A stretch of DNA of 64,000 nt from a virus, in the IMG/VR virus record IMGVR_UViG_3300037452_000118, positions 64,814-128,813 of that record; one strand, given 5' to 3'. Under the pieces are notes generated by a model. The model was not told where the DNA came from. It saw only the letters and a list, made by a program, of their open reading frames with translations, and did no database searches. A program made the position numbers and the translations under genes. Shown piece after piece: positions 27,426-50,117 of the stretch. Positions within the stretch are counted from its first letter, which is position 1; every line of letters begins with the position of its first letter.

Positions 27426-29315
27426 ATGGCAAACATCGGAACGACGAATGTCCCGGGAATCGTGTGGGGAGCTAATGGCCCGCAGGCGCCGTCTACCGCG
27501 GCTATCCTTGGCGGCGTTCAATCTGACTACAATATAGCCTTCAATATCTCATTCAATTGGAACGGTACGACCCCGCAAGGGCAGTTGACGACGACGACCG
27601 CTGCACTGCTCGCCAATTACAACCAGGTCCTAATTTACTACGCCTCGCAGGTCGACCCGGCCTTCTCGCAGGGCCGGATGCAGGACGCCATCCTGCGCAT
27701 CAACTTCCTCACCCGCAAGCCGGCGCAGTCGACGGTGCTCCAGATTTCCTGCAACGGCGCCGGGGCGTCCATCCCGGCCGGCCCGCTCGTCTACGGCACC
27801 GTCGTCGATTCATCGGGCAACCTCTACCAGTGCACCGGGTCCGGCACGCTGCCCGCGGCCGGCGGCTCGATCGTGCTGTCCTTCGCCGCGGTCACCCCAG
27901 GCCCGATCGCGGTGCCGAGCTCGGTGAAGATATATCAAGCCATCCCTGGGTGGGATTCGGCGGCCGTGATCTCCGGCGTCGTCGGCAACAACACGGAAAC
28001 CTCGCAGCAGGCCGAGCTGAGGCGGCAGCTCTCCGTGGCGGCGAACGCCCGCAATACCAACTCCGCGGTCCTGGGCGCCGTTCTCTCCGTCCCCGGGGTG
28101 CTCGACGCCTACGTCATCGACAACCCGACGAACTCGCCGGCGACGATCGGCGGCTACACCTTGGCGGCGCGCTCGATCTACGTCGCCGTGACGGGGGGCA
28201 TCGCGCAGGCAGTCGGCAACGCGATCTGGACGAAGAAGCCGCCTGGCATCCCGATGAACGGCAACACGTCGGTGACGGTGACCGACCAGAACCCGGCCTA
28301 CTCGCCGCCCTACCCCTCCTACACGATCACCTTCGAGACGCCGGCGCCGCTGCCGGTCTACTTCGCGGTCAACATCGCCAACAGCGGCCTCGTGCCGTCG
28401 AACGCCGCCGCGCAGGTCCAGACCGCCATCGTCAACGCCTTCAACGGGGCGAACACCGGCTCGAGCTTCACCGGCTCCATATCTGGCAACGTGCTCAACG
28501 TGACGGCCGTGGCGTCGGGGACTATCGTCGTCGGCCAATCGCTCGGCGGGGCCGGCGTCGTCCCCGGCACCACGATCTCGGCGCTGCTCACCGGGGCCGG
28601 GAACGCCGGCACCTACATCGTCAGCACGCCGCAGAACGTCGCCTCGACGGCGATGACTACGGCGCCGACGACGAACTTGACGGTGCCGCCGAAGGCCAGG
28701 ATCGGCTCCGTGGTCTACGCCAGCCAGTACGGCGCCGCGGTCGCCGCGCTGGGCTCCTGGGCGGCCGTGAAGTCGATCCTGTGCGGCTCCGCCAACGACT
28801 CCGACGCCGCCTCCGTGGTCGGCTCCATCTCGGGCACCACGCTGACGGTGAGGTCCGTCACGTCCGGCGCGCTCGTCGTCGGGCAGTGGCTCACCGGGTT
28901 CGATTCCAACGGCGCCATCACGCCCGGGACGACGATCGCGGCCTTCAACACCGGGGTCGGCGGCACCGGGACTTACACCGTCAGCAACCCGCAGAACCTC
29001 GGCGGCGCCATCTTCACGGGGACCAACGGGACCGGGGCCACGCTGACCGCGACCGGGGTCAGCGGCACCGTCGGCGTCGGCGACGTCATCTCCGGGATCG
29101 GCGTCCCTTCCGGCACCACGATCACCGGCCAACTGTCCGGCACCATCGGCGGCAACGGCGTCTACACGACGTCGGTCCAGACCAGCTCGTCCGGCGCCAC
29201 GATCACCTGCGGGATACAGATAACGGCGGTCGCCGCGACCCAGAACTTGGTCGCCGTCGGCATAGCGCAGGAGCCGACGATCGCGCCTCAGAACATTTCC
29301 GTAAGCGTCACATGA
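27426..29315 (+). CDS. Baseplate J-like protein with three inserted repeat modules
   Basis: [36 protein letters not shown]. Confidence 0.85.
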
Positions 29316-29404
29316 ACGAACTCGCGAACCACGCTACAATGCAAGACCGCCGATTCCTTGCAGGGAATCGACGGCCTCTAACCTCAATCCGAACGGAGCG
29401 GACT

Positions 29405-29974
29405 ATGGCTGCACGTGAAGATATTACCGCCGCACTTGTGCGGCAACTGCTCGATTACAATCCACAAACCGGAGAATTAATTTGGAAAATCCGTACGCCG
29501 GATATGTTCTTTAGTTCTGGCAATTGGTCAGCAGAATTGAAGTGCAAGCGCTTCAACGAAACGACCGCAGGGCAGCGCGCCGGATGCTTCAGTAAGGAAG
29601 GCTATTTGCAAGTCAAATTTGGCGGACGCCAATATCGCGCTCACAGGCTGATATGGCTGATCGTATTCGGAGAATTTCCGGCAGAAGAAATTGATCACCT
29701 CAATGGTAAAAGAGATGACAATTCTTTGGCAAATCTTCGTTTGGCCAACCGCTCTGGAAATATGCAAAACAAAGGAAAGGGCGCAAATAATACGAGTGGC
29801 GTCATCGGCGTATATTGGCATAAACCGAGAAACAAATGGCGCGCCATTATCCGGTATAATGGACGAAGAATTGATTTGGGGCGGTTTGATCGAATCGAAG
29901 ATGCTGCCAACGCCTATTTAGAAGCAAAGAAAAAATATCATTCATTTCAGCCGGTCCCGCGGGAGCTTCTCTGA
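29405..29974 (+). CDS. HNH homing endonuclease with AP2-like domain
   Basis: LLDYNPQTG, AHRLIW, IDHLNGKRDDNSLANLR, NTSGVIGVYW..LGRF. Confidence 0.9.
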   Translation: MAAREDITAALVRQLLDYNPQTGELIWKIRTPDMFFSSGNWSAELKCKRFNETTAGQRAGCFSKEGYLQVKFGGRQYRAHRLIWLIVFGEFPAEEIDHLNGKRDDNSLANLRLANRSGNMQNKGKGANNTSGVIGVYWHKPRNKWRAIIRYNGRRIDLGRFDRIEDAANAYLEAKKKYHSFQPVPRELL

Positions 29975-44846: not shown

Positions 44847-47722
44847 TCAGGGACTAGTCGAAATGGTCTTATTGCGAAAGGACCAAAGTGCTAATGAACT
44901 GAATGGAGCATCTACCGGGACGAGGCGAGAAAAATAACTGCAACGCTCGACCCATTCGAGCCATACCCATTCGCATTCTATAGTTTTGACCGGGCGCCAT
45001 GCAAACCACGGTTGCCATTGGGATTCTGATTTTAGAATTTTCTTTCTACCTTTCCAGCGCATCATCGTTTCCTCCGACTATCTCGGCGTCAGTCGCTTTG
45101 CACCGGACAAAATTCTCCCGTCCAGTTTTTGTTTGCGCGTTGGTCCGTCAATGCGCAATCGCAGCATAGCCATCACTCGACCTTCTCTGTCTGATGCCAA
45201 TACGACCGGCCCAGGATGACCGTTCCGCACATTTCACATTCATCTGGCGGTGGTGAGTAAGTCATCGCTACTTCGCCTTTGTCTTCTGCCGCAGCGCCCT
45301 CACAATATGCTCGGCATCCGCCCGCTCCAATCTTATGCAGAATGTGGACCGTGACGGGATACGCCCACTGATCCAGGGGCGCTTGCTGGCGGCATGGATG
45401 ATGGTGATGAGTTCGGCCGCACATTTGGTCATCGTTAGTGCCATCCTCTCAGTTCGCGCCGGACTGCAATGATAGGACGCGGCGGCTTACGCGGCTTGCG
45501 CCCGCAATTATTGTTTTCTCGACCGTTGATGTACCCCTGCACAATACATCGGCATTGCGGCCAGTTAGAACACTTCGCAAAAAGTAGTTTGGATTTTGCC
45601 ATGTGGCTGCTCATGGGGGTTCAGTCGGTTACGTGTTCATCTTCCCATTCGCAGACAAGCCGCTCGGCAACGAATGACTCAAAGCCGAGTTTTTCGAGCC
45701 GCTGAATGGCGTCGATGTAGCTCAACTCTCTTGCCTTGAACTCGCGCTTAACTACATCTTCACTGTCCATCAGAATCTCCCTGCATTGGACGGGTTTAAC
45801 CGCCTGTTGCTTCGGCAATGATACTCAGAAGTGCATCCTCGGCTTTGGTCCATTGTTGCTCGCCAGCCCATACCTCGTAGCTCAATAGAGCCGCGCGTAG
45901 ATGGTGGACCGGGACCTTAGACGCATACTCTAGCGCCCGCACGCCGTCGCATTGGTGGTGCTGGCACATGGCGGCAAAGTGCAACTTGAGTTGGCCTGGC
46001 GTCATCTTATCGACGGTCGGCGACTGGCGCATCTTTAGTTCCCGGTTGTTGTGATGTTATTGCGTTGCATTTACGATGTGCCTCGCGTCTTCTGGATATT
46101 TATGTCGCGCAGATATTCCAACCAACAGTGCCTCCAAATCGCAGCCCTTTCGAAAGAAAGTTCGCGGAGCAATTAAAACGTCGCATGGCAGAGGATTTGG
46201 CCGAGCCAACTCTACCAGCGCGGCAAATTCTTCTTCTGATAGGCAAAAATTGCCGTCTCCGCTGATTCTGGCACATATCTTGCGGATATTTTCCAATGTC
46301 ATCGTGACCGCTCCATTGACTACTGATCAGCGCGGCGCTTTGCTAAATCTGGCCGCACGCCCGTTCCCTTACACGCATAACAGACCGTATTGACCACAGC
46401 GTTCACGCCGTAGGACCAAATACGTCCCATGCCGTCGCACAACTCACAAATCGGAGGATGATCTTTTTGATCCATTTGTTACCTGCTTTGGACGGGACAA
46501 CCGCCAACTACCACCAATCGGCGGCATTATAGAAAACGTGGCCACCTGGTGTAACCGTGACTTCGCAGCCATCACCAGCAACATAGGTAACGGATTTTTT
46601 GAGGCGCTTCGCTTGCTCAATCGCCCGCTGCTCACGCTCCGTATCGGCTCGGTCTTGCATTTGTTCTTTCTCATAAGCGCCCATGTTCCGAGTCCTGTGT
46701 GTTTATTGGCGGTCAGTCGGTTGCTTCTAGTAGACGATGTAGCAACGCGAGCCTTAGCATTTGGGCTGCTTCATCCTCTTGTCCTCGTTCGCGAGATTCA
46801 AAAGCCATTTGCTCCAGGACTTCGGCGCAACGCGCGTGGCCAACTGCGTTCCAATCTATTAATCCAGGTTCGCTCATGGCGACATACGTCCTGTTATCGC
46901 CTGTTTGCGGAGAATAGGCGCCGTAATCTCCGCACATTCCATCTGCGGCGCTCCCAGCGGGCGACCGCGGCCCAACCCCATTGATCGAGAGGTCCGAATT
47001 GCGCATTGGCATCTTCTAGCTGGCGCCGGTTGAATGGCGGCGGAATAAGGTAGTAGAGCCACGGGCGCGGCGTCCATCTAAGTTCTGGGATTTCGGTTTC
47101 GATCATTGGCTGGCGTTCCTAGTCGCGCCGCTGCGCAAAAGATATAACCAGATCACGCAACCGATCATAAACGCCGCGCGATATGACAACGCTATCATTG
47201 TCAGGTTTTTGTCGGGTCTTGAGTTTGGAAAGTTCTTTGTGGGCGCGGTGCCCCGCCGGCAGGACACCCACATACTCGTCAAGGGTCATTTCTTCCTCAA
47301 CCATTGGTACAGCTCCATGTTAACCCCGTGCAGTTCTCGATCATGTCTCTGCTTGGTCATCAAGAAACGTGTTGTTGATAATGGCCTCGGCGCAGTTCTG
47401 CACGTCGTCCTCAGACAAACCACTTTCGACGGCATCCTCTAGGAGCTTGAGCAGGGCGTTTTCAAATTCTTCAAGCGTCATGGCTGTTAACCCCGTGTCA
47501 GGCGGTCGCTTTCTGCCGCGTCGGCAGAAACAGCCGTGTGTACCAATCGACGTTCTGCTCAAACGTCCGCTTGCCGCGCTCGCGTACCACCTCATCATCG
47601 GACGCCATCAGGTCTAGATTGGCGATGAAGACCTTGCACCAATGCTTCTCGCCGGGATCGTCGGTTGTTCTGGCGACGGCCAGAAGTTCGGCGCGCTTGG
47701 TTCGGATTTCGGAGGAGGTCAT
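44847..47722 (-). other. Cluster of short lower-GC hypothetical phage genes
   Basis: Tightly packed minus-strand ORFs such as 44847-45065, 45621-45818, 45796-46032, 46057-46302, 46894-47106, 47119-47304, 47498-47722. Confidence 0.55.
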
Positions 47723-47735
47723 TTTCGCGTTGCCA

Positions 47736-49307
47736 TCAACGGTGCTGCGGGACGCGCAGCGGGTTAGGGAACTGGCGCACCATCAGATGCGGCGGGATCG
47801 GGGCTTTGCCGGCCATTTGTTTCATAAATGCGGCGACGTTTGCCTTGTTGCATTGGCGCAAGATGCTCGCGGCCCACGCCTCCTCCATCGGGCGGTGCTT
47901 CGGCCCGCTCTCTCCACCAATAATTATCCAACTCAGGTGAGGCTGGATCGGATCGCCGGTCTCGGTATAGCCGAATTTTCCTCCGTGCCCGCGAACGCCG
48001 GTCAGCGCGTTGATGGTTCTGAAGACGGTGTTCTCGTCTGGCGCCGACATCGGGATGTGGCAGAAGTCGATAGGTCCGATCAGGGGCTCAGCGCTGACGA
48101 ACCTGATCGCCGCCGGCGTCTTCAAAAGGAGCGGCACGCGCTCGTCGGCTTCCTGCTGGCGCTCTGCGGAAATGCCCAACCATACATTAGGCAGTGGCCA
48201 TATCAAACGTGAGGCCAAGTTCTCCCGGTACAGATCGCCGAAACCGCCCTCGGTTTCATTTGATATTTTTCCGCAATGTCCTTCACCATTGCGCCGGCCT
48301 TCCGCATCTGCCTCATCAGTAAAACGTCGGCTTCGGTTAAATGCGTCTTCGGATGCTTGCTTCCTTTGGGCCGATTGCGGTTCACGTTCAAGACTTCGAT
48401 CGCGTGGCGGCGCTGTTCCGAATAAGTCGCCAGCTCCAGATTGTCCGGGTGGTTGCGCTGTTTGTTCCCGTCCTCGTGCTTGTGATTGATCGTCAGACCA
48501 TCCGGTATTGGGCCGTTGAAATAGGTCCAAATGACTCGGTGTGCGCCCGTCACCGTCTTTACGCCGTTGATCGTCGTCGTAATCAACAAATAGCCGTCCC
48601 GAGTCGGATATTCGGCTCGCACCCGTTTGCAATCTGTCAGCCCCACTCTCTTTTGATAATCGCTCTCCCCCTTCTGACGTGGCTTCCCGTGTCGCTTCTT
48701 GAGCCGCCATATCTGGCCCTCCGCGTCGATTTCCAGTTCGCCGGCCGTTACTAGCGAGAGGATGATCTCTTCCTTGTTCATATCTTGCCTTATACACTAA
48801 AGCGGACACGCGGTCTATCGTTTCGGGCGATGAGCAATAGGCTCTCATACGTTCTGCTCTTTTGCTCAAAACTTGGAACGTGTGCTGCGGGCACAGCGCC
48901 ATGACGGCTAAGATTTTATCGATCGCCTCATCGGGCAGGGACTCGTGGAAAATGTCGCTGGTCGAGCTGGCGAATATCTTGGCCGGCTTGCGCCAGTTCA
49001 TCGGCAGCGCCAGGCGATCCTCTTGCAGCTCGACCTTGCCGGTCCAACGCGGCTTCCCGTTCTGCATCTCGGCAAAGCCGTGGCCCCATTGGTCCTTGAA
49101 CGTCGGCGGCTTCTTGCCGGAGTTCTTCGGGTCGGCGCGCCATCGGGCCTCGACCTCCGCTGCGGACAAGGAGAACCGCGCCGCCAAACCTTCCGCGTAG
49201 CAGCCGCCGTGAGGTCCCGGACCGCCGCAGCCGGGCGAGACTCTGGTGCAGCCCCGGATCGGGTTCCAGTCGGACCGGTCGGTCCACTCGATTTTGCTCT
49301 CAGCCAT
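47736..49307 (-). CDS. DUF5131 (phage Gp37/Gp68-like) protein with a ~195-aa insertion
   Basis: SKIEWTD..WNPIRGCTRVSPGC..CYAE, SDIFHE, HTFQVLSKR, WPLPNVWLGISAE, FVSAEPLIG, WIIIGGESG, FMKQ. Confidence 0.9.
   Translation of the reverse strand: MAESKIEWTDRSDWNPIRGCTRVSPGCGGPGPHGGCYAEGLAARFSLSAAEVEARWRADPKNSGKKPPTFKDQWGHGFAEMQNGKPRWTGKVELQEDRLALPMNWRKPAKIFASSTSDIFHESLPDEAIDKILAVMALCPQHTFQVLSKRAERMRAYCSSPETIDRVSALVYKARYEQGRDHPLASNGRRTGNRRGGPDMAAQEATREATSEGGERLSKESGADRLQTGASRISDSGRLFVDYDDDQRRKDGDGRTPSHLDLFQRPNTGWSDDQSQARGREQTAQPPGQSGAGDLFGTAPPRDRSLEREPQSAQRKQASEDAFNRSRRFTDEADAEGRRNGEGHCGKISNETEGGFGDLYRENLASRLIWPLPNVWLGISAERQQEADERVPLLLKTPAAIRFVSAEPLIGPIDFCHIPMSAPDENTVFRTINALTGVRGHGGKFGYTETGDPIQPHLSWIIIGGESGPKHRPMEEAWAASILRQCNKANVAAFMKQMAGKAPIPPHLMVRQFPNPLRVPQHR
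48203..48781 (-). CDS. HNH endonuclease nested in the +1 frame of the DUF5131 gene
   Basis: AHRVIWTYFNGPIPDGLTINHKHEDGNKQRNHPDNLELAT, KGSKHPKTHLTEADV, C-terminal HTH ..ICTGRTW. Confidence 0.9.
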   Translation of the reverse strand: MNKEEIILSLVTAGELEIDAEGQIWRLKKRHGKPRQKGESDYQKRVGLTDCKRVRAEYPTRDGYLLITTTINGVKTVTGAHRVIWTYFNGPIPDGLTINHKHEDGNKQRNHPDNLELATYSEQRRHAIEVLNVNRNRPKGSKHPKTHLTEADVLLMRQMRKAGAMVKDIAEKYQMKPRAVSAICTGRTWPHV

Positions 49308-49578
49308 CTGCGCTCTCGATGATCTTGCGGAGGTCCCCGCAGCGGGGGCAGTTCAGGGTGATCGTCGTCCGGTCGATGCTGACGGTGCCGGCGCAGCGGT
49401 GGGCCGGCCGCTTGTCGGCGCAGTGCGCCCTGACGAGGAGCTCGCGGAGATGGCGGTAGACCTCGGCCACCTTCGGCTCCTCCGCCACCGGCATGTGGCA
49501 GCAGGTCGCCGGGATCTCGCCGGGGACGGCGTCGACCGGGATGATGCCCTCGCTGGTCGGCTCCTGGCGCTTCTTCAT
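49300..49578 (-). CDS. Small Cys-rich protein
   Basis: MKKRQEP..CAG..CPRCG; coupled to neighbours. Confidence 0.55.
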   Translation of the reverse strand: MKKRQEPTSEGIIPVDAVPGEIPATCCHMPVAEEPKVAEVYRHLRELLVRAHCADKRPAHRCAGTVSIDRTTITLNCPRCGDLRKIIESADG

Positions 49579-50117
49579 CGCCCGTTCCTTATCTTGCGCT
49601 TCGGCCATTTCATCGTGCCATGCAGCGGCCTGGAAGGCCACTTCCGTCTGGGGCGCCTAGCCTTGGCGGCGGAATCGGGAGCGCGCTTGACCTGAGACGG
49701 CCTTTTCGGGAATCCAGTTGACCTAGCCGGTGCAAAACCTCGGCGGGACACTTTACTTTTTCGGCCAGAATGTGCGCCACGCTTAATTTGATCAACCCCT
49801 GAAGCGAGGAACTCATCGTAGAACGCCGCCGCCGCCGCGAAAGGATCGATGCCGGCATTGTCGAAGAACCAGCGCTCACTGGTGCGGTGGAGCGCGTACA
49901 TCCCGTTGCGGTGGCAGTCCGCGCAGAGCGGGACGGCCCACCTGTCGCTCGGCTTCTCCTGGCCGGTCTCCCGCTTGCCGCGCGCCGGGCAGGCGCCGCG
50001 GATGTGGGCTGCCTCGACGCGGGGCGGGGCCGAGCAGGCGCAGCAGCGCTGCCCCCGCAGGAAGGCGAGGAAGGCGCGATCCTCGACCCGCGGCTCGCGC
50101 TGGCGGAGCTCAGGCAT
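49575..50117 (-). CDS. DUF968-like HNH-type nuclease
   Basis: CCAC..EAAHIR..KPSDRWAVPLCADCH. Confidence 0.75.
   Translation of the reverse strand: MPELRQREPRVEDRAFLAFLRGQRCCACSAPPRVEAAHIRGACPARGKRETGQEKPSDRWAVPLCADCHRNGMYALHRTSERWFFDNAGIDPFAAAAAFYDEFLASGVDQIKRGAHSGRKSKVSRRGFAPARSTGFPKRPSQVKRAPDSAAKARRPRRKWPSRPLHGTMKWPKRKIRNGR

Follow-up and report, generated by a model that had tools for sequence, protein, structure and literature searches.

A putative HNH homing endonuclease gene lying out of frame within an uninterrupted DUF5131 gene of an environmental virus

Homing endonucleases were long thought to persist in conserved genes only by way of introns, inteins or the splitting of the gene that they occupy. 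I-HmuI, the HNH homing endonuclease of Bacillus phage SPO1, is encoded in a self-splicing group I intron; the title of its PDB entry, 1u3e, likewise calls it a homing endonuclease. In free-standing genes of the Aeh1 nrdA/mobE type, a homing endonuclease is found inside a conserved phage gene with neither intron nor intein, and the host gene is divided into two ORFs, the products of which come together again. In a cyanobacterial dnaX intein, the homing endonuclease reportedly occupies an alternative frame of an in-frame insertion, and the surrounding element splices itself out. Closest to the case considered here is the ShiLan domain, which reportedly also appears in a 2023 forerunner (PMC9957025) of the 2025 paper on hidden endonuclease genes.

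In that 2025 paper (Arsenault, Gosselin, Gogarten, Genes 2025, PMC11855218), the ShiLan domain and the Pacc40 gp60 insertion were described as HNH endonucleases hidden out of frame within the DNA methylase genes of mycobacteriophages. The locus described below has much in common with the ShiLan type as presented there: an insertion in a phage gene, one of whose alternative frames on the same strand holds an HNH gene of ~190 aa; a host frame free of stops; an HNH stop codon at the extreme 3' end of the insertion; no sign of an intron or intein; a host-frame product predicted as a loop; a disjunct distribution, as for a homing element; and a proposal of leaderless translation. The strategy that an earlier note on this DNA had inferred had already been published in 2025 for mycobacteriophage DNA methylases. 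The two differ in that the host gene here encodes DUF5131 rather than a methylase, and in that the HNH gene starts with ATG at host codon position 2, whereas ShiLan starts with GTG at position 3. The ShiLan enzyme is described in PMC11855218 as having zinc fingers that flank the HNH, whereas the present one combines an I-HmuI-like body with a C-terminal helix-turn-helix and has two Cys only. Furthermore, two insertion sites are used here, unlike in ShiLan as described; the sequences come from environmental viral contigs and two MAGs rather than from cultured actinophages; and codon statistics are given, of which the text of the 2025 paper contains none. By its section 4.4, the production of a full-length host protein with a loop from an unspliced mRNA is for ShiLan, too, a prediction rather than an experimental finding. 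The words 'gp37', 'gp68' and 'radical' are absent from its main text, but its supplementary survey of 'several' similar insertions may include DUF5131. Among the papers listed by a search of the literature on Gp37/Gp68 with homing endonucleases, none was relevant by title or by the start of the abstract.

The locus lies in a window of 64,000 nucleotides, positions 64,814 to 128,813 of IMG/VR virus record IMGVR_UViG_3300037452_000118. Contigs from two soil runs show 0 differences over the whole stretch, and these runs may be the record's own source. As the earlier note had proposed, a complete HNH ORF of 192 aa, from ATG to TGA, lies wholly within an uninterrupted DUF5131 ORF of 523 aa (Table 1; the coordinates include the stop codon), a layout that the ORF listing, the Pfam matches and the relative phase all bear out. 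The two ORFs share a strand, and the HNH ATG begins one base past the start of a host codon (offset 526, 526 mod 3 = 1). The Pfam match to DUF5131 (PF07505; E 9.4e-67, 225.5 bits against a cut-off of 28.9) is split over two stretches, profile positions 1-123 and 119-217 of a profile of 243, yet both halves lie in a single open frame without stops, so that the proposed stop-free passage of the host frame across the insert is confirmed. Host residues 3-161 correspond to profile positions 1-123, and the protein also matches phrog_2045 over residues 1-508 (E 3e-81). HMMs built here for the two halves end the N part at 48843 and begin the C part at 48200, three bases past the HNH stop codon, in agreement with the claim that conserved host motifs end before the HNH gene and resume at its stop. 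The 61-nt leader between the last of these motifs and the HNH ATG reads in the host frame as the helix-forming peptide Y-C-S-S-P-E-T-I-D-R-V-S-A-L-V-Y-K-A-R and also holds a promoter-like site; since a similar peptide is present in one insert-free relative, P0067, the leader may be partly host-derived.

Table 1. Features of the nested locus, in positions of the window, with the evidence for each
Feature	Position	Strand	Evidence
Host gene, DUF5131 (phage Gp37/Gp68, radical-SAM-like), 523 aa	47736..49307	-	PF07505, phrog_2045, AlphaFold2 model, fold search
Host N-terminal half, up to K-R-x-x-R-M-R motif	48843..49307	-	DUF_N HMM positions 1-132, 227 bits
Leader, 61 nt, from last host-wide motif to HNH ATG	48782..48842	-	sequence, junctions in relatives
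Promoter-like site upstream of HNH ATG	48789..48817	-	TAGACC, 17-nt spacer, TATAAG
Nested HNH_3 + C-terminal helix-turn-helix homing endonuclease gene (putative), 192 aa	48203..48781	-	PF13392, phrog_59, I-HmuI fold
Host-frame read-through peptide, ~193 residues, stop-free	48204..48782	-	composition, frame identity, pLDDT
Host C-terminal half, starting at W-P-L-P-N-V-W motif	47772..48200	-	DUF_C HMM positions 1-132, 172 bits

The nested ORF belongs to HNH_3 (PF13392; E 1.7e-13, 50.4 bits against a cut-off of 24.8) and to phrog_59 (E 5.2e-26). Residues N99, H100, N110 and H126 are invariant in 56 sequences. A profile comparison aligns the ORF with I-HmuI over the core (E 9.4e-7), and the same structure, 1u3e, is the top Foldseek match of the predicted model (E 2.7e-5, probability 1.00, 187 columns, identity ~16%). 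The model has a pLDDT of 84 and ends in helices at residues 150-161, 166-173 and 177-184, the helix-turn-helix. Judged by its invariant catalytic residues and the I-HmuI-like fold of the model, the enzyme looks active. It shares with I-HmuI the HNH_3 catalytic core and a two-part architecture, but no intron is detectable here and the HNH gene is overprinted on host codons. Similarly, the locus resembles the Aeh1 type in placing such a gene inside a conserved phage gene with no intron or intein, but the host ORF here is single; and it resembles the dnaX case in its use of an alternative frame, but lacks a splicing domain. Within the same host family, two relatives (P0069 and P0111) carry at the same site as the window, site A of the two insertion sites, a similar module of HNH_3 and helix-turn-helix, again in an unbroken host ORF with no splicing signature. 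This module, which is 27% identical over 113 residues to the window HNH, is encoded in the host frame and forms a domain of the host protein, whereas in the window the nuclease lies in a shifted frame and the host sees a low-complexity linker. A candidate second nested case in the same genome, an HNH_3 match in an 815-aa open frame, was rejected, as the match belongs to a free-standing HNH-AP2 gene situated where a spurious G+C-rich frame ends.

The host protein, for its part, is predicted to be a radical-SAM-type enzyme; DUF5131 is said to be named in the RadicalSAM.org perspective. Its N half carries a motif of three cysteines, C20/C27/C36, that is invariant in 114 aligned sequences. When the AlphaFold2 model was compared with known structures in a VIA wide search, the top match was spore photoproduct lyase (4fhc; Z 12.1, rmsd 3.2, 204 residues); the next 13 chains, at Z 8.3-9.1, are all radical SAM enzymes by title, and the alignments cover host residues 1 to ~500; Foldseek found no match to the whole host model at E <= 0.001. 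The model has a pLDDT mostly >90 for residues 11-170 and 371-510, and block means of only 33-55 for residues 181-360, that is, for the insert. These models suggest that the two halves fold as one radical-SAM-like partial barrel, with the three-Cys motif near its N-terminus, around a low-confidence insert. The earlier note had remarked on the disordered look of the read-through peptide, which is rich in R, G, D, A, S and E, and the model accords with this, although low pLDDT is by itself no proof of disorder. We infer that the barrel tolerates the insert as a loop; an unspliced message probably yields the host protein in one piece, including ~190 residues of floppy loop.

How the host frame stays open can be read from the HNH codons. 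A stop arises in the host frame wherever an HNH codon ending in T precedes AA, AG or GA; in the window gene, 27 of the 192 codons end in T, but none of the 55 that precede an AA/AG/GA codon does so. When synonymous codons were permuted within the HNH gene, the check that the earlier note had called for, only 100 of 200,000 permutations were free of host-frame stops (P = 5e-4; mean 5.9 stops), while the other sense frame contains 15 stops where 14.9 are expected. Openness alone is nevertheless weak evidence, because open alternative frames of this length are common in so G+C-rich a genome: 2,678 of 16,147 windows of 193 codons (16.6%) are open in the same relative frame, in 104 greedily chosen ORFs. 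The window elsewhere contains a spurious open frame of 805 aa.

Stronger evidence comes from relatives. A census retrieved these by patterns in the HNH frame, and was consequently not selected for an open host frame; it comprises 89 stretches with 93 HNH copies in 74 clusters at 90% nucleotide identity. It leaves out L003 and L004, two weak loci from a viral scan with a single HNH protein, and the weak loci L011-L031, with identity <=38% and no DUF5131 flank by tblastn; HNH matches below 100 bits were left out of the stop counts. The search that had been proposed for other alternative-frame HNH inserts in DUF5131 genes thereby found 63 nested clusters that share one phase, of which 36 occupy site A and 27 occupy site B. 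The host frame is open in 63/63 of these, with 0 real interruptions against ~325 (325.2) expected stops, a comparison to be read with the clusters taken as relatives, heavily diverged at third positions, rather than as independent events. Host-frame stops in nested relatives, which would have spoken against the proposal, are therefore not seen. One apparent exception, L076, was rejected, as its 3 counted stops all lie at or past the host gene's own stop; L005 and L039_749 are both nested, the former in a DUF5131 remnant and the latter at site B of a doubly invaded gene. In 47 full-length copies pooled, 0 of the 2,188 codons before AA/AG/GA have T at the third position, as against 1,070 of 6,611 elsewhere. 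By comparison, 8 clusters of the HNH family that lack DUF5131 flanks or lie downstream of the gene all have stops in the same relative frame, numbering 3, 3, 3, 8, 8, 9, 14 and 18. In the single copy in the other phase, L084 (1 of 66 nested clusters), the host frame is closed and the layout is split. Several copies have a decayed or truncated HNH gene while the host frame is still open: L007/L042, with a premature stop, and L076, L053, L104 and L110. By these codon counts, the openness of the host frame is not due to chance, and the overprinting is kept by strong purifying selection against one class of codon pairs.

The same relatives indicate which frame encodes a conserved protein. Nucleotide entropy at HNH codon positions 1, 2 and 3 is 1.09, 0.91 and 1.55 bits, and translation of nested relatives in the HNH frame gives a mean pairwise amino acid identity of 48.5%, as compared with 24.2% for the host frame and 27.0% for the third. 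On these alignments, the HNH frame is the only one that is conserved as protein.

The distribution of the HNH gene does not follow that of its host. Insert-free proteins of 353-419 aa supply the four closest host N-parts (89, 86, 82 and 77% identity), and the closest HNH (77%) is found together with a host N-part of just 49% identity. Of 171 pairs, 35 have an HNH identity >15 points above that of the host, and 0 show the reverse. Nested elements were found in viral contigs from soil and other environments and in two bacterial MAGs. Among cultured phages of the searched collection no insert was seen: blastn of the region returned 10 records and tblastn of the 523-aa protein 147, none of which covers 80% of the query. 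A tblastn search with the HNH gave 906 records, all at <60% identity, and none of them bears on nesting. Four soil DNA runs, two of which may be the source of the record, contained no joint skipping the insert and no insert-free allele, and no RNA run is listed as containing the stretch. This disjunct distribution, discordant with host-gene relatedness, indicates from sequence comparison that the HNH gene is moving between hosts.

Expression of the HNH gene may be provided for within the leader. The promoter-like site consists of TAGACC (48817-48812), a 17-nt spacer and TATAAG (48794-48789), 7 nt from the HNH ATG, and agrees with the consensus at 9/12 positions. Among 55 copies, 15 have a -10-like hexamer at a distance of exactly 7 nt upstream of the start, whereas each of 24 other offsets has 0-1; 25 have the full geometry (-35, 17, -10, 7, ATG) at >=8/12, whereas shifting it gives 0-1 copies at nine positions and 6 at a tenth. 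In all, 27/55 copies have a promoter-like site at the fixed distance upstream of the start, and 22 of the other 28 have a Shine-Dalgarno-like motif. In the window itself, a promoter tool passed over the site on account of the final G of the second hexamer; the only promoter that it did call (48206 to 48179) lies within what shuffled sequence yields (1 against a mean of 0.6). Thus, about half of the copies have what resembles a sigma-70 promoter, placed such that a transcript would start at the HNH ATG. Compared with the AAGG that had been read as a ribosome site, the -35/-10-like pair at fixed distance may matter more.

Taken together, these results have led to a model that we hold with considerable confidence as the best explanation: a splicing-free, dual-coding HNH homing element overprinted on a permissive DUF5131 loop. 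It is the reading that the earlier note favored, and it is best supported by the purged stops, the conservation of the HNH frame, the lack of an intron or intein signature and the AlphaFold2 halves. In this model, an I-HmuI-like HNH gene was inserted into a permissive loop of DUF5131, in the orientation of the host gene and with a frame offset of one base. Ribosomes translating the host gene would read through the insert without splicing to give a full-length enzyme, with the two barrel halves joined by a disordered linker of ~190 residues, and this would work only because the HNH gene avoids a T-ending codon before AA, AG or GA. The endonuclease would be made separately from its own ATG, probably from an internal sigma-70-type promoter whose transcript starts at or beside the ATG (a leaderless mRNA), or else by internal initiation. 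The enzyme would cut insert-free DUF5131 alleles beside the W-P-L-P-N-V-W codons, and repair would copy the element in.

Other explanations have to be weighed against this model. An unrecognized self-splicing intron, of group I or II, might carry the HNH gene, such that the host mRNA is spliced and the open frame is irrelevant; HNH_3 enzymes such as I-HmuI are classically intron-encoded, and covariance models can overlook an intron when one of its loops contains a large ORF. Yet a search with Rfam found no family up to E 10 at 47500-49500 except one chance lncRNA match, and none at gathering score in 20 related loci. Furthermore, the 3 nt from the HNH stop to the host motif and the 61 nt before the ATG are too short for a ribozyme core to fit beside the ORF, and splicing gives no reason for purging in 63/63 clusters, unlike in free-standing relatives. 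An intron is consequently judged highly improbable. An atypical intein, in which the host-frame peptide is spliced out of the protein and the HNH gene is an out-of-frame passenger, as in the dnaX case, would also need the open frame, but is less probable still. Pfam detects no Hint or intein domain in the 523-aa protein, and the residues that follow the insert are L-I-W-P, with no C, S or T at the junction, so that here too the earlier finding of no group I core and no intein termini holds. In addition, the host-frame peptide, with an identity of 24% against 27% for the unused frame and pLDDT of 33-55, is no more conserved than that frame and so cannot hold conserved splicing blocks. Model libraries would, however, miss RNA or protein processing of a kind not yet described.

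Least probable, in our estimation, is that the open frame is a by-product of G+C-rich composition in a DUF5131 gene that is disrupted or dying, with no selection for read-through. Such frames do arise, as the 16.6% of open 193-codon windows and the spurious 805-aa frame attest, but this explanation is countered by the permutation within the gene itself, by the absence of interruptions in 63 clusters where ~325 stops are expected and free-standing relatives have 3-18, and by flanking host halves that are conserved and confidently folded. One further possibility accepts that read-through is needed but has the HNH made by a programmed +1 ribosomal frameshift, as a fusion with the DUF5131 N-half. 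The frames are indeed one base apart, ribosomes already traverse the start region, and the 2025 paper (PMC11855218) leaves open how hidden HNH genes are translated. Nested copies, though, retain an ATG (rarely GTG) at the family N-terminus, and a promoter-like site at fixed distance (27/55) or a Shine-Dalgarno-like motif (22 of the other 28) precedes it; we regard a frameshift as very unlikely.

Within the dual-coding model, a more specific version can be tentatively suggested, one to which we give slightly less than even odds: the element may be a frame-proofed portable cassette, with a stop-purged alternative frame and a sigma-70 promoter written in host codons for a leaderless mRNA. The purged frame would let the element land in any permissive loop, provided that the phase is right, which would explain why sites A and B are occupied in identical phase and why the sole out-of-phase copy broke its host. 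The near-consensus promoter, its -10 box exactly 7 nt before the ATG, would give a leaderless mRNA that starts inside the host gene, and such a transcript would uncouple HNH expression from the ribosomes reading the host frame. If true, this version would answer the question of how hidden HNH genes are expressed, which the 2025 paper left open.

Even apart from that version, the locus offers a concrete candidate model of expression, an internal promoter with a leaderless mRNA, and the free-standing, unpurged relatives constitute a natural control. The two insertion sites mark loops of the radical-SAM-like barrel that appear to tolerate ~190 extra residues. From such a locus, a gene caller will output an over-long DUF5131 protein whose middle is of low complexity, or else a nuclease, but never the two together, which is why these elements systematically escape notice. 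Overprinting on a tolerated loop would be a further route by which homing endonucleases persist in conserved genes, known so far from the one 2025 paper on methylases (PMC11855218), and the ~65 sequence clusters of relatives suggest that this route is widespread in environmental phages.

The observation in the earlier note proves correct in every element. In a viral record of 128.8 kb with direct terminal repeats, of which the window is the second half, and whose region is matched by identical contigs in soil metagenome runs, ORF coordinates and Pfam agree that a 192-aa HNH ORF lies wholly within a stop-free 523-aa DUF5131 ORF on the same strand, with its ATG one base past a host codon start. 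In a genome search, the two halves of DUF5131 correspond to profile positions 1-123 and 119-217 and share one open frame. The insert was delimited by alignment to insert-free homologues, using N-half and C-half HMMs made from 109 insert-free DUF5131 relatives; the host N half ends at 48843 and the C half starts at 48200, three bases past the HNH stop codon, so the host motifs do end just before the insert and resume at its stop.

Coordinates of the nested gene, its neighbors, and related features (window positions unless a locus or the record is named)
Feature	Positions	Strand	Remarks
DUF5131 host ORF	47736..49307	-	523 aa, stop-free; Pfam DUF5131 E 9.4e-67, in two stretches
Nested HNH ORF	48203..48781	-	192 aa, wholly inside DUF5131 ORF; Pfam HNH_3 E 1.7e-13
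ORF overlapping DUF5131 start	49300-49641		ends in ATGGCTGA
180-aa ORF two genes upstream	49575-50117	-	DUF968 borderline, 27.3 bits vs cut-off 27.8; PHROG matches to HNH endonucleases
Free-standing HNH_3 + AP2 endonuclease gene	29300-29974	+	Pfam E 1.6e-13 and 6.2e-10; 3' end of an 805-aa open frame
629-aa gene	27426..29315		805-aa frame is mostly its spurious, G+C-rich alternative frame
HNH_3 matches (record coordinates)	G000:C1 17853-17984, 23065-23193, 94446-94580, 102439-102558, 113220-113360		only the last, the present finding, shown nested
HNH nested in other phase	L084 158-727		host frame stops just before HNH
HNH in internally deleted host	L005 2329-3210		one open frame, 293 codons
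Doubly invaded DUF5131	L007 1467-2033 + 2190-2768; L039 14-580 + 749-1312		L042 has the L007 layout; also L053
Weak HNH-like matches	L037 2645-3025, L038 1403-1783, L009 3672-3812, L091 3473-3631		21-77 bits; downstream of invaded DUF5131 genes; left out of census

With five HNH_3 matches in the record, the phage is rich in homing-endonuclease-like genes, and the 180-aa ORF may be another nuclease-like gene of the same operon. Because the end of the preceding ORF overlaps the DUF5131 start, these two genes may be translationally coupled.

Taken alone, the open host frame is weak evidence, since the genome is G+C-rich and open alternative frames are frequent: the same relative frame is open in 2,678 of 16,147 windows of 193 codons (104 greedily chosen ORFs of this genome), and a spurious open frame elsewhere in the window reaches 805 aa. 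The HNH gene itself is less G+C-rich than the genome. For a stop to arise in the host frame, an HNH codon ending in T must precede one beginning with AA, AG, or GA, and in the window's gene T is present at 0 of 55 such junctions despite 27 T-ending codons. Permutation of synonymous codons within the HNH gene, a check suggested in the earlier note, left the host frame stop-free in only 100 of 200,000 trials (mean, 5.9 stops); a stop-free frame is thus rare, not common. The other sense frame has 15 stops versus 14.9 expected from the same permutation.

A protein search with the 523-aa product gave at least 120 DUF5131 proteins (P-numbers) among the matches listed. Among 11 of 120 inspected in sequence, the insert is absent from P0001-P0004, a low-complexity read-through like the window's is present in P0005, P0019, and P0086, and in P0069 and P0111 the same loop holds an HNH_3 module in the host frame. 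Because such a search returns unbroken ORFs only and is therefore biased, relatives were gathered via the HNH frame, whose family comprises at least 120 protein clusters at 48-79% identity. Fifty-six HNH clusters were aligned (alignment A2) and then used to find the relatives' DNA (L-numbers) in viral contigs (27 loci, 6 close), species-representative genomes (2 loci, both MAGs), and metagenome contigs (best 80 of 117 relatives kept).

This census yielded 93 HNH copies of at least 100 bits in 89 stretches (the window, L005-L010, and L032-L113), forming 74 clusters at 90% nucleotide identity, which are relatives and not independent events. Within DUF5131, the HNH occupies one of two places, directly upstream of the W-P-L-P-N-V-W codons (site A, the window's) or of the V-I-V-G-G-E-S-G-P codons (site B). 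Both flanks, where seen, share one frame, and the HNH is always off by the same single base, L084 apart. Across the 63 clusters nested in the same phase (36 at site A, 27 at site B), 3 host-frame stops were counted versus 325.2 expected, all 3 in L076 and none upstream of the host gene's own stop codon, where the HNH span was extended too far. Two clusters found nested on inspection (L005 and L039_749) have 0, and the 8 clusters in which the HNH lacks a surrounding DUF5131 or lies downstream of the gene have 3, 3, 3, 8, 8, 9, 14, and 18. Thus, the search for further out-of-frame inserts was productive, and relatives with an interrupted host frame, which would have counted against the proposal, are missing from the same-phase clusters; the frame is closed in L084, a split gene in the other phase. 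In 47 full-length nested copies pooled, T is the third base in 0 of 2,188 codons before AA, AG, or GA versus 1,070 of 6,611 others. Because third positions have diverged far (nucleotide entropy 1.09, 0.91, and 1.55 bits at HNH codon positions 1, 2, and 3 of nested copies), these sequences indicate that the lack of stops is maintained, not merely inherited.

Several loci depart from the common layout. In L084, the sole other-phase nested copy, an ATG past the HNH may serve to restart the host C part, giving either a classical split-gene layout or a dying gene. In L005, only the first ~20 and last ~50 DUF5131 residues flank the HNH, and the internally deleted host frame is nonetheless open. Doubly invaded genes carry an HNH at each site, the site-B one being the more distant, with the host frame open through both; in L007/L042 the site-A HNH is cut short by a premature stop after 14 codons.

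Averaged over pairs, amino-acid identity reaches 48.5% in the HNH frame. Because it is 24.2% in the host frame versus 27.0% in the unused third frame, the host-frame peptide is judged not to be conserved as protein but constrained only to be stop-free. In the window, R, G, D, A, S, and E are abundant in this peptide, and the impression that it looks disordered agrees with AlphaFold2 (114 aligned sequences), which gives block-mean pLDDT of 33-55 for residues 181-360 of the 523-aa product and mostly > 90 for residues 11-170 and 371-510. Foldseek with the whole model found no match at E <= 0.001. The top match of a VIA wide search was spore photoproduct lyase 4fhc (Z 12.1, rmsd 3.2, 204 residues), followed by thirteen chains at Z 8.3-9.1, all radical SAM enzymes by title, and three Cys are invariant in the DUF5131 alignment. 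Since the alignments span residues 1 to ~500, one barrel is predicted to require both host halves, with the insert in a barrel loop. Insert-free relatives (P0004, P0067, P0077) vary naturally in length at both sites and carry other insertions there. P0067 and P0077 share a common, apparently structured insertion of ~110 residues near site B, showing that this site also tolerates large natural insertions.

Could splicing instead restore the host product? Were the HNH carried by an intron, splicing at the RNA level would not select for an open host frame, and this is the most telling point. In addition, only 61 nt 5' and 3 nt 3' lie outside the HNH ORF, and the absence of a group I core noted earlier is borne out by Rfam, which gave nothing beyond one chance match over 47500-49500 up to E 10 and no match at gathering score in 20 related loci. 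An intein is likewise rejected: Pfam found no Hint domain in the 523-aa product, the host-frame peptide has no conserved blocks, and L-I-W-P directly follows the insert, consistent with the missing intein termini. The splicing-free, dual-coding reading, in which the invader's frame is tolerated as a host-protein loop, is thus supported by stop purging, HNH-only conservation, the lack of an intron or intein signature, and the low confidence of the modeled loop.

The nuclease looks functional and mobile. Its family profile matches I-HmuI (PDB 1u3e) at E 9.4e-7; the HNH model (pLDDT 84) has a beta-rich body, an HNH core, and three C-terminal helices, with 1u3e as its best PDB match (E 2.7e-5, 187 columns), and N99, H100, N110, and H126 are invariant in 56 HNH sequences. 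Insert-free proteins of 353-419 aa share 89, 86, 82, and 77% identity with the window's host N half. Among its first 40 relatives there is no out-of-frame HNH locus, the sole insert-bearing protein being P0069 (in-frame HNH, 59.9%). The window and L034 share 77% identity in the HNH and only 49% in the host N half, and similarity between HNHs is > 15 points above that between hosts in 35 of 171 site-A pairs, with the reverse in 0. These comparisons are evidence of HNH transfer between divergent hosts. Decayed or shortened copies still in open host frames (L007/L042, L076, L053, L104, L110) fit a cycle of homing where the host stays under selection after the nuclease has decayed. Separately, P0069 and P0111 have HNH_3 plus a helix-turn-helix in frame at site A without intein motifs, which makes the nuclease a host-protein domain; over 113 residues, P0069 and the window's HNH are 27% identical.

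How the nuclease might be expressed was approached by aligning the upstream regions of 55 nested copies on the HNH start codon. In 15/55, exactly 7 nt separate the start from the end of a -10-like hexamer (at least 5/6 matches to TATAAT), whereas 24 other offsets each have such a hexamer in 0-1 copies. With fixed geometry (-35, 17 nt, -10, 7 nt, ATG), at least 8/12 positions match in 25/55 copies (12 at site A, 13 at site B), versus 0-1 at nine shifts of the reference frame and 6 at one. Among those 25, -35 T1 and G3 and -10 A2 are present in 25/25 and -10 T3 in 23/25; these positions weigh most in sigma-70 recognition. Flexible geometry brings 27/55 to at least 8/12; of the remaining 28, 22 show a Shine-Dalgarno-like word instead. 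The window's own site (TAGACC, 17 nt, TATAAG, 7 nt, ATG) scores 9/12; a promoter tool did not call it upstream of the HNH ATG because the second hexamer ends in G. From this spacing, we infer that an internal promoter expresses the HNH: the transcript would start at or beside the A of its ATG, and the resulting leaderless mRNA would be produced independently of ribosomes on the host frame.

A comparable case is the ShiLan domain (Arsenault, Gosselin, Gogarten, Genes 2025; PMC11855218), described there as a 195-aa HNH in an alternative frame, inserted in mycobacteriophage DNA methylase genes, with a stop-free host frame, no sign of an intron or intein, a predicted loop, and proposed leaderless translation; Pacc40 gp60 is given there as a second case. 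By that description, the window's element is likewise a hidden out-of-frame HNH insertion, but differs in host family, nuclease architecture, and phase; its family also has two target sites and is widespread in the environment. In the papers searched, the main text of the 2025 one included, no link from DUF5131 or Gp37/Gp68 to such an insert was found. The element therefore belongs to a recently described kind and is not a new one. The lack of splicing, loop tolerance, promoter use, and cleavage are predicted functional steps. The family adds proof, at the population level, that host-frame stops are purged, with free-standing copies as a natural negative control; it also shows that conservation is confined to the HNH frame, gives evidence of transfer among divergent hosts, and yields a specific, predicted model of promoter-driven leaderless expression.
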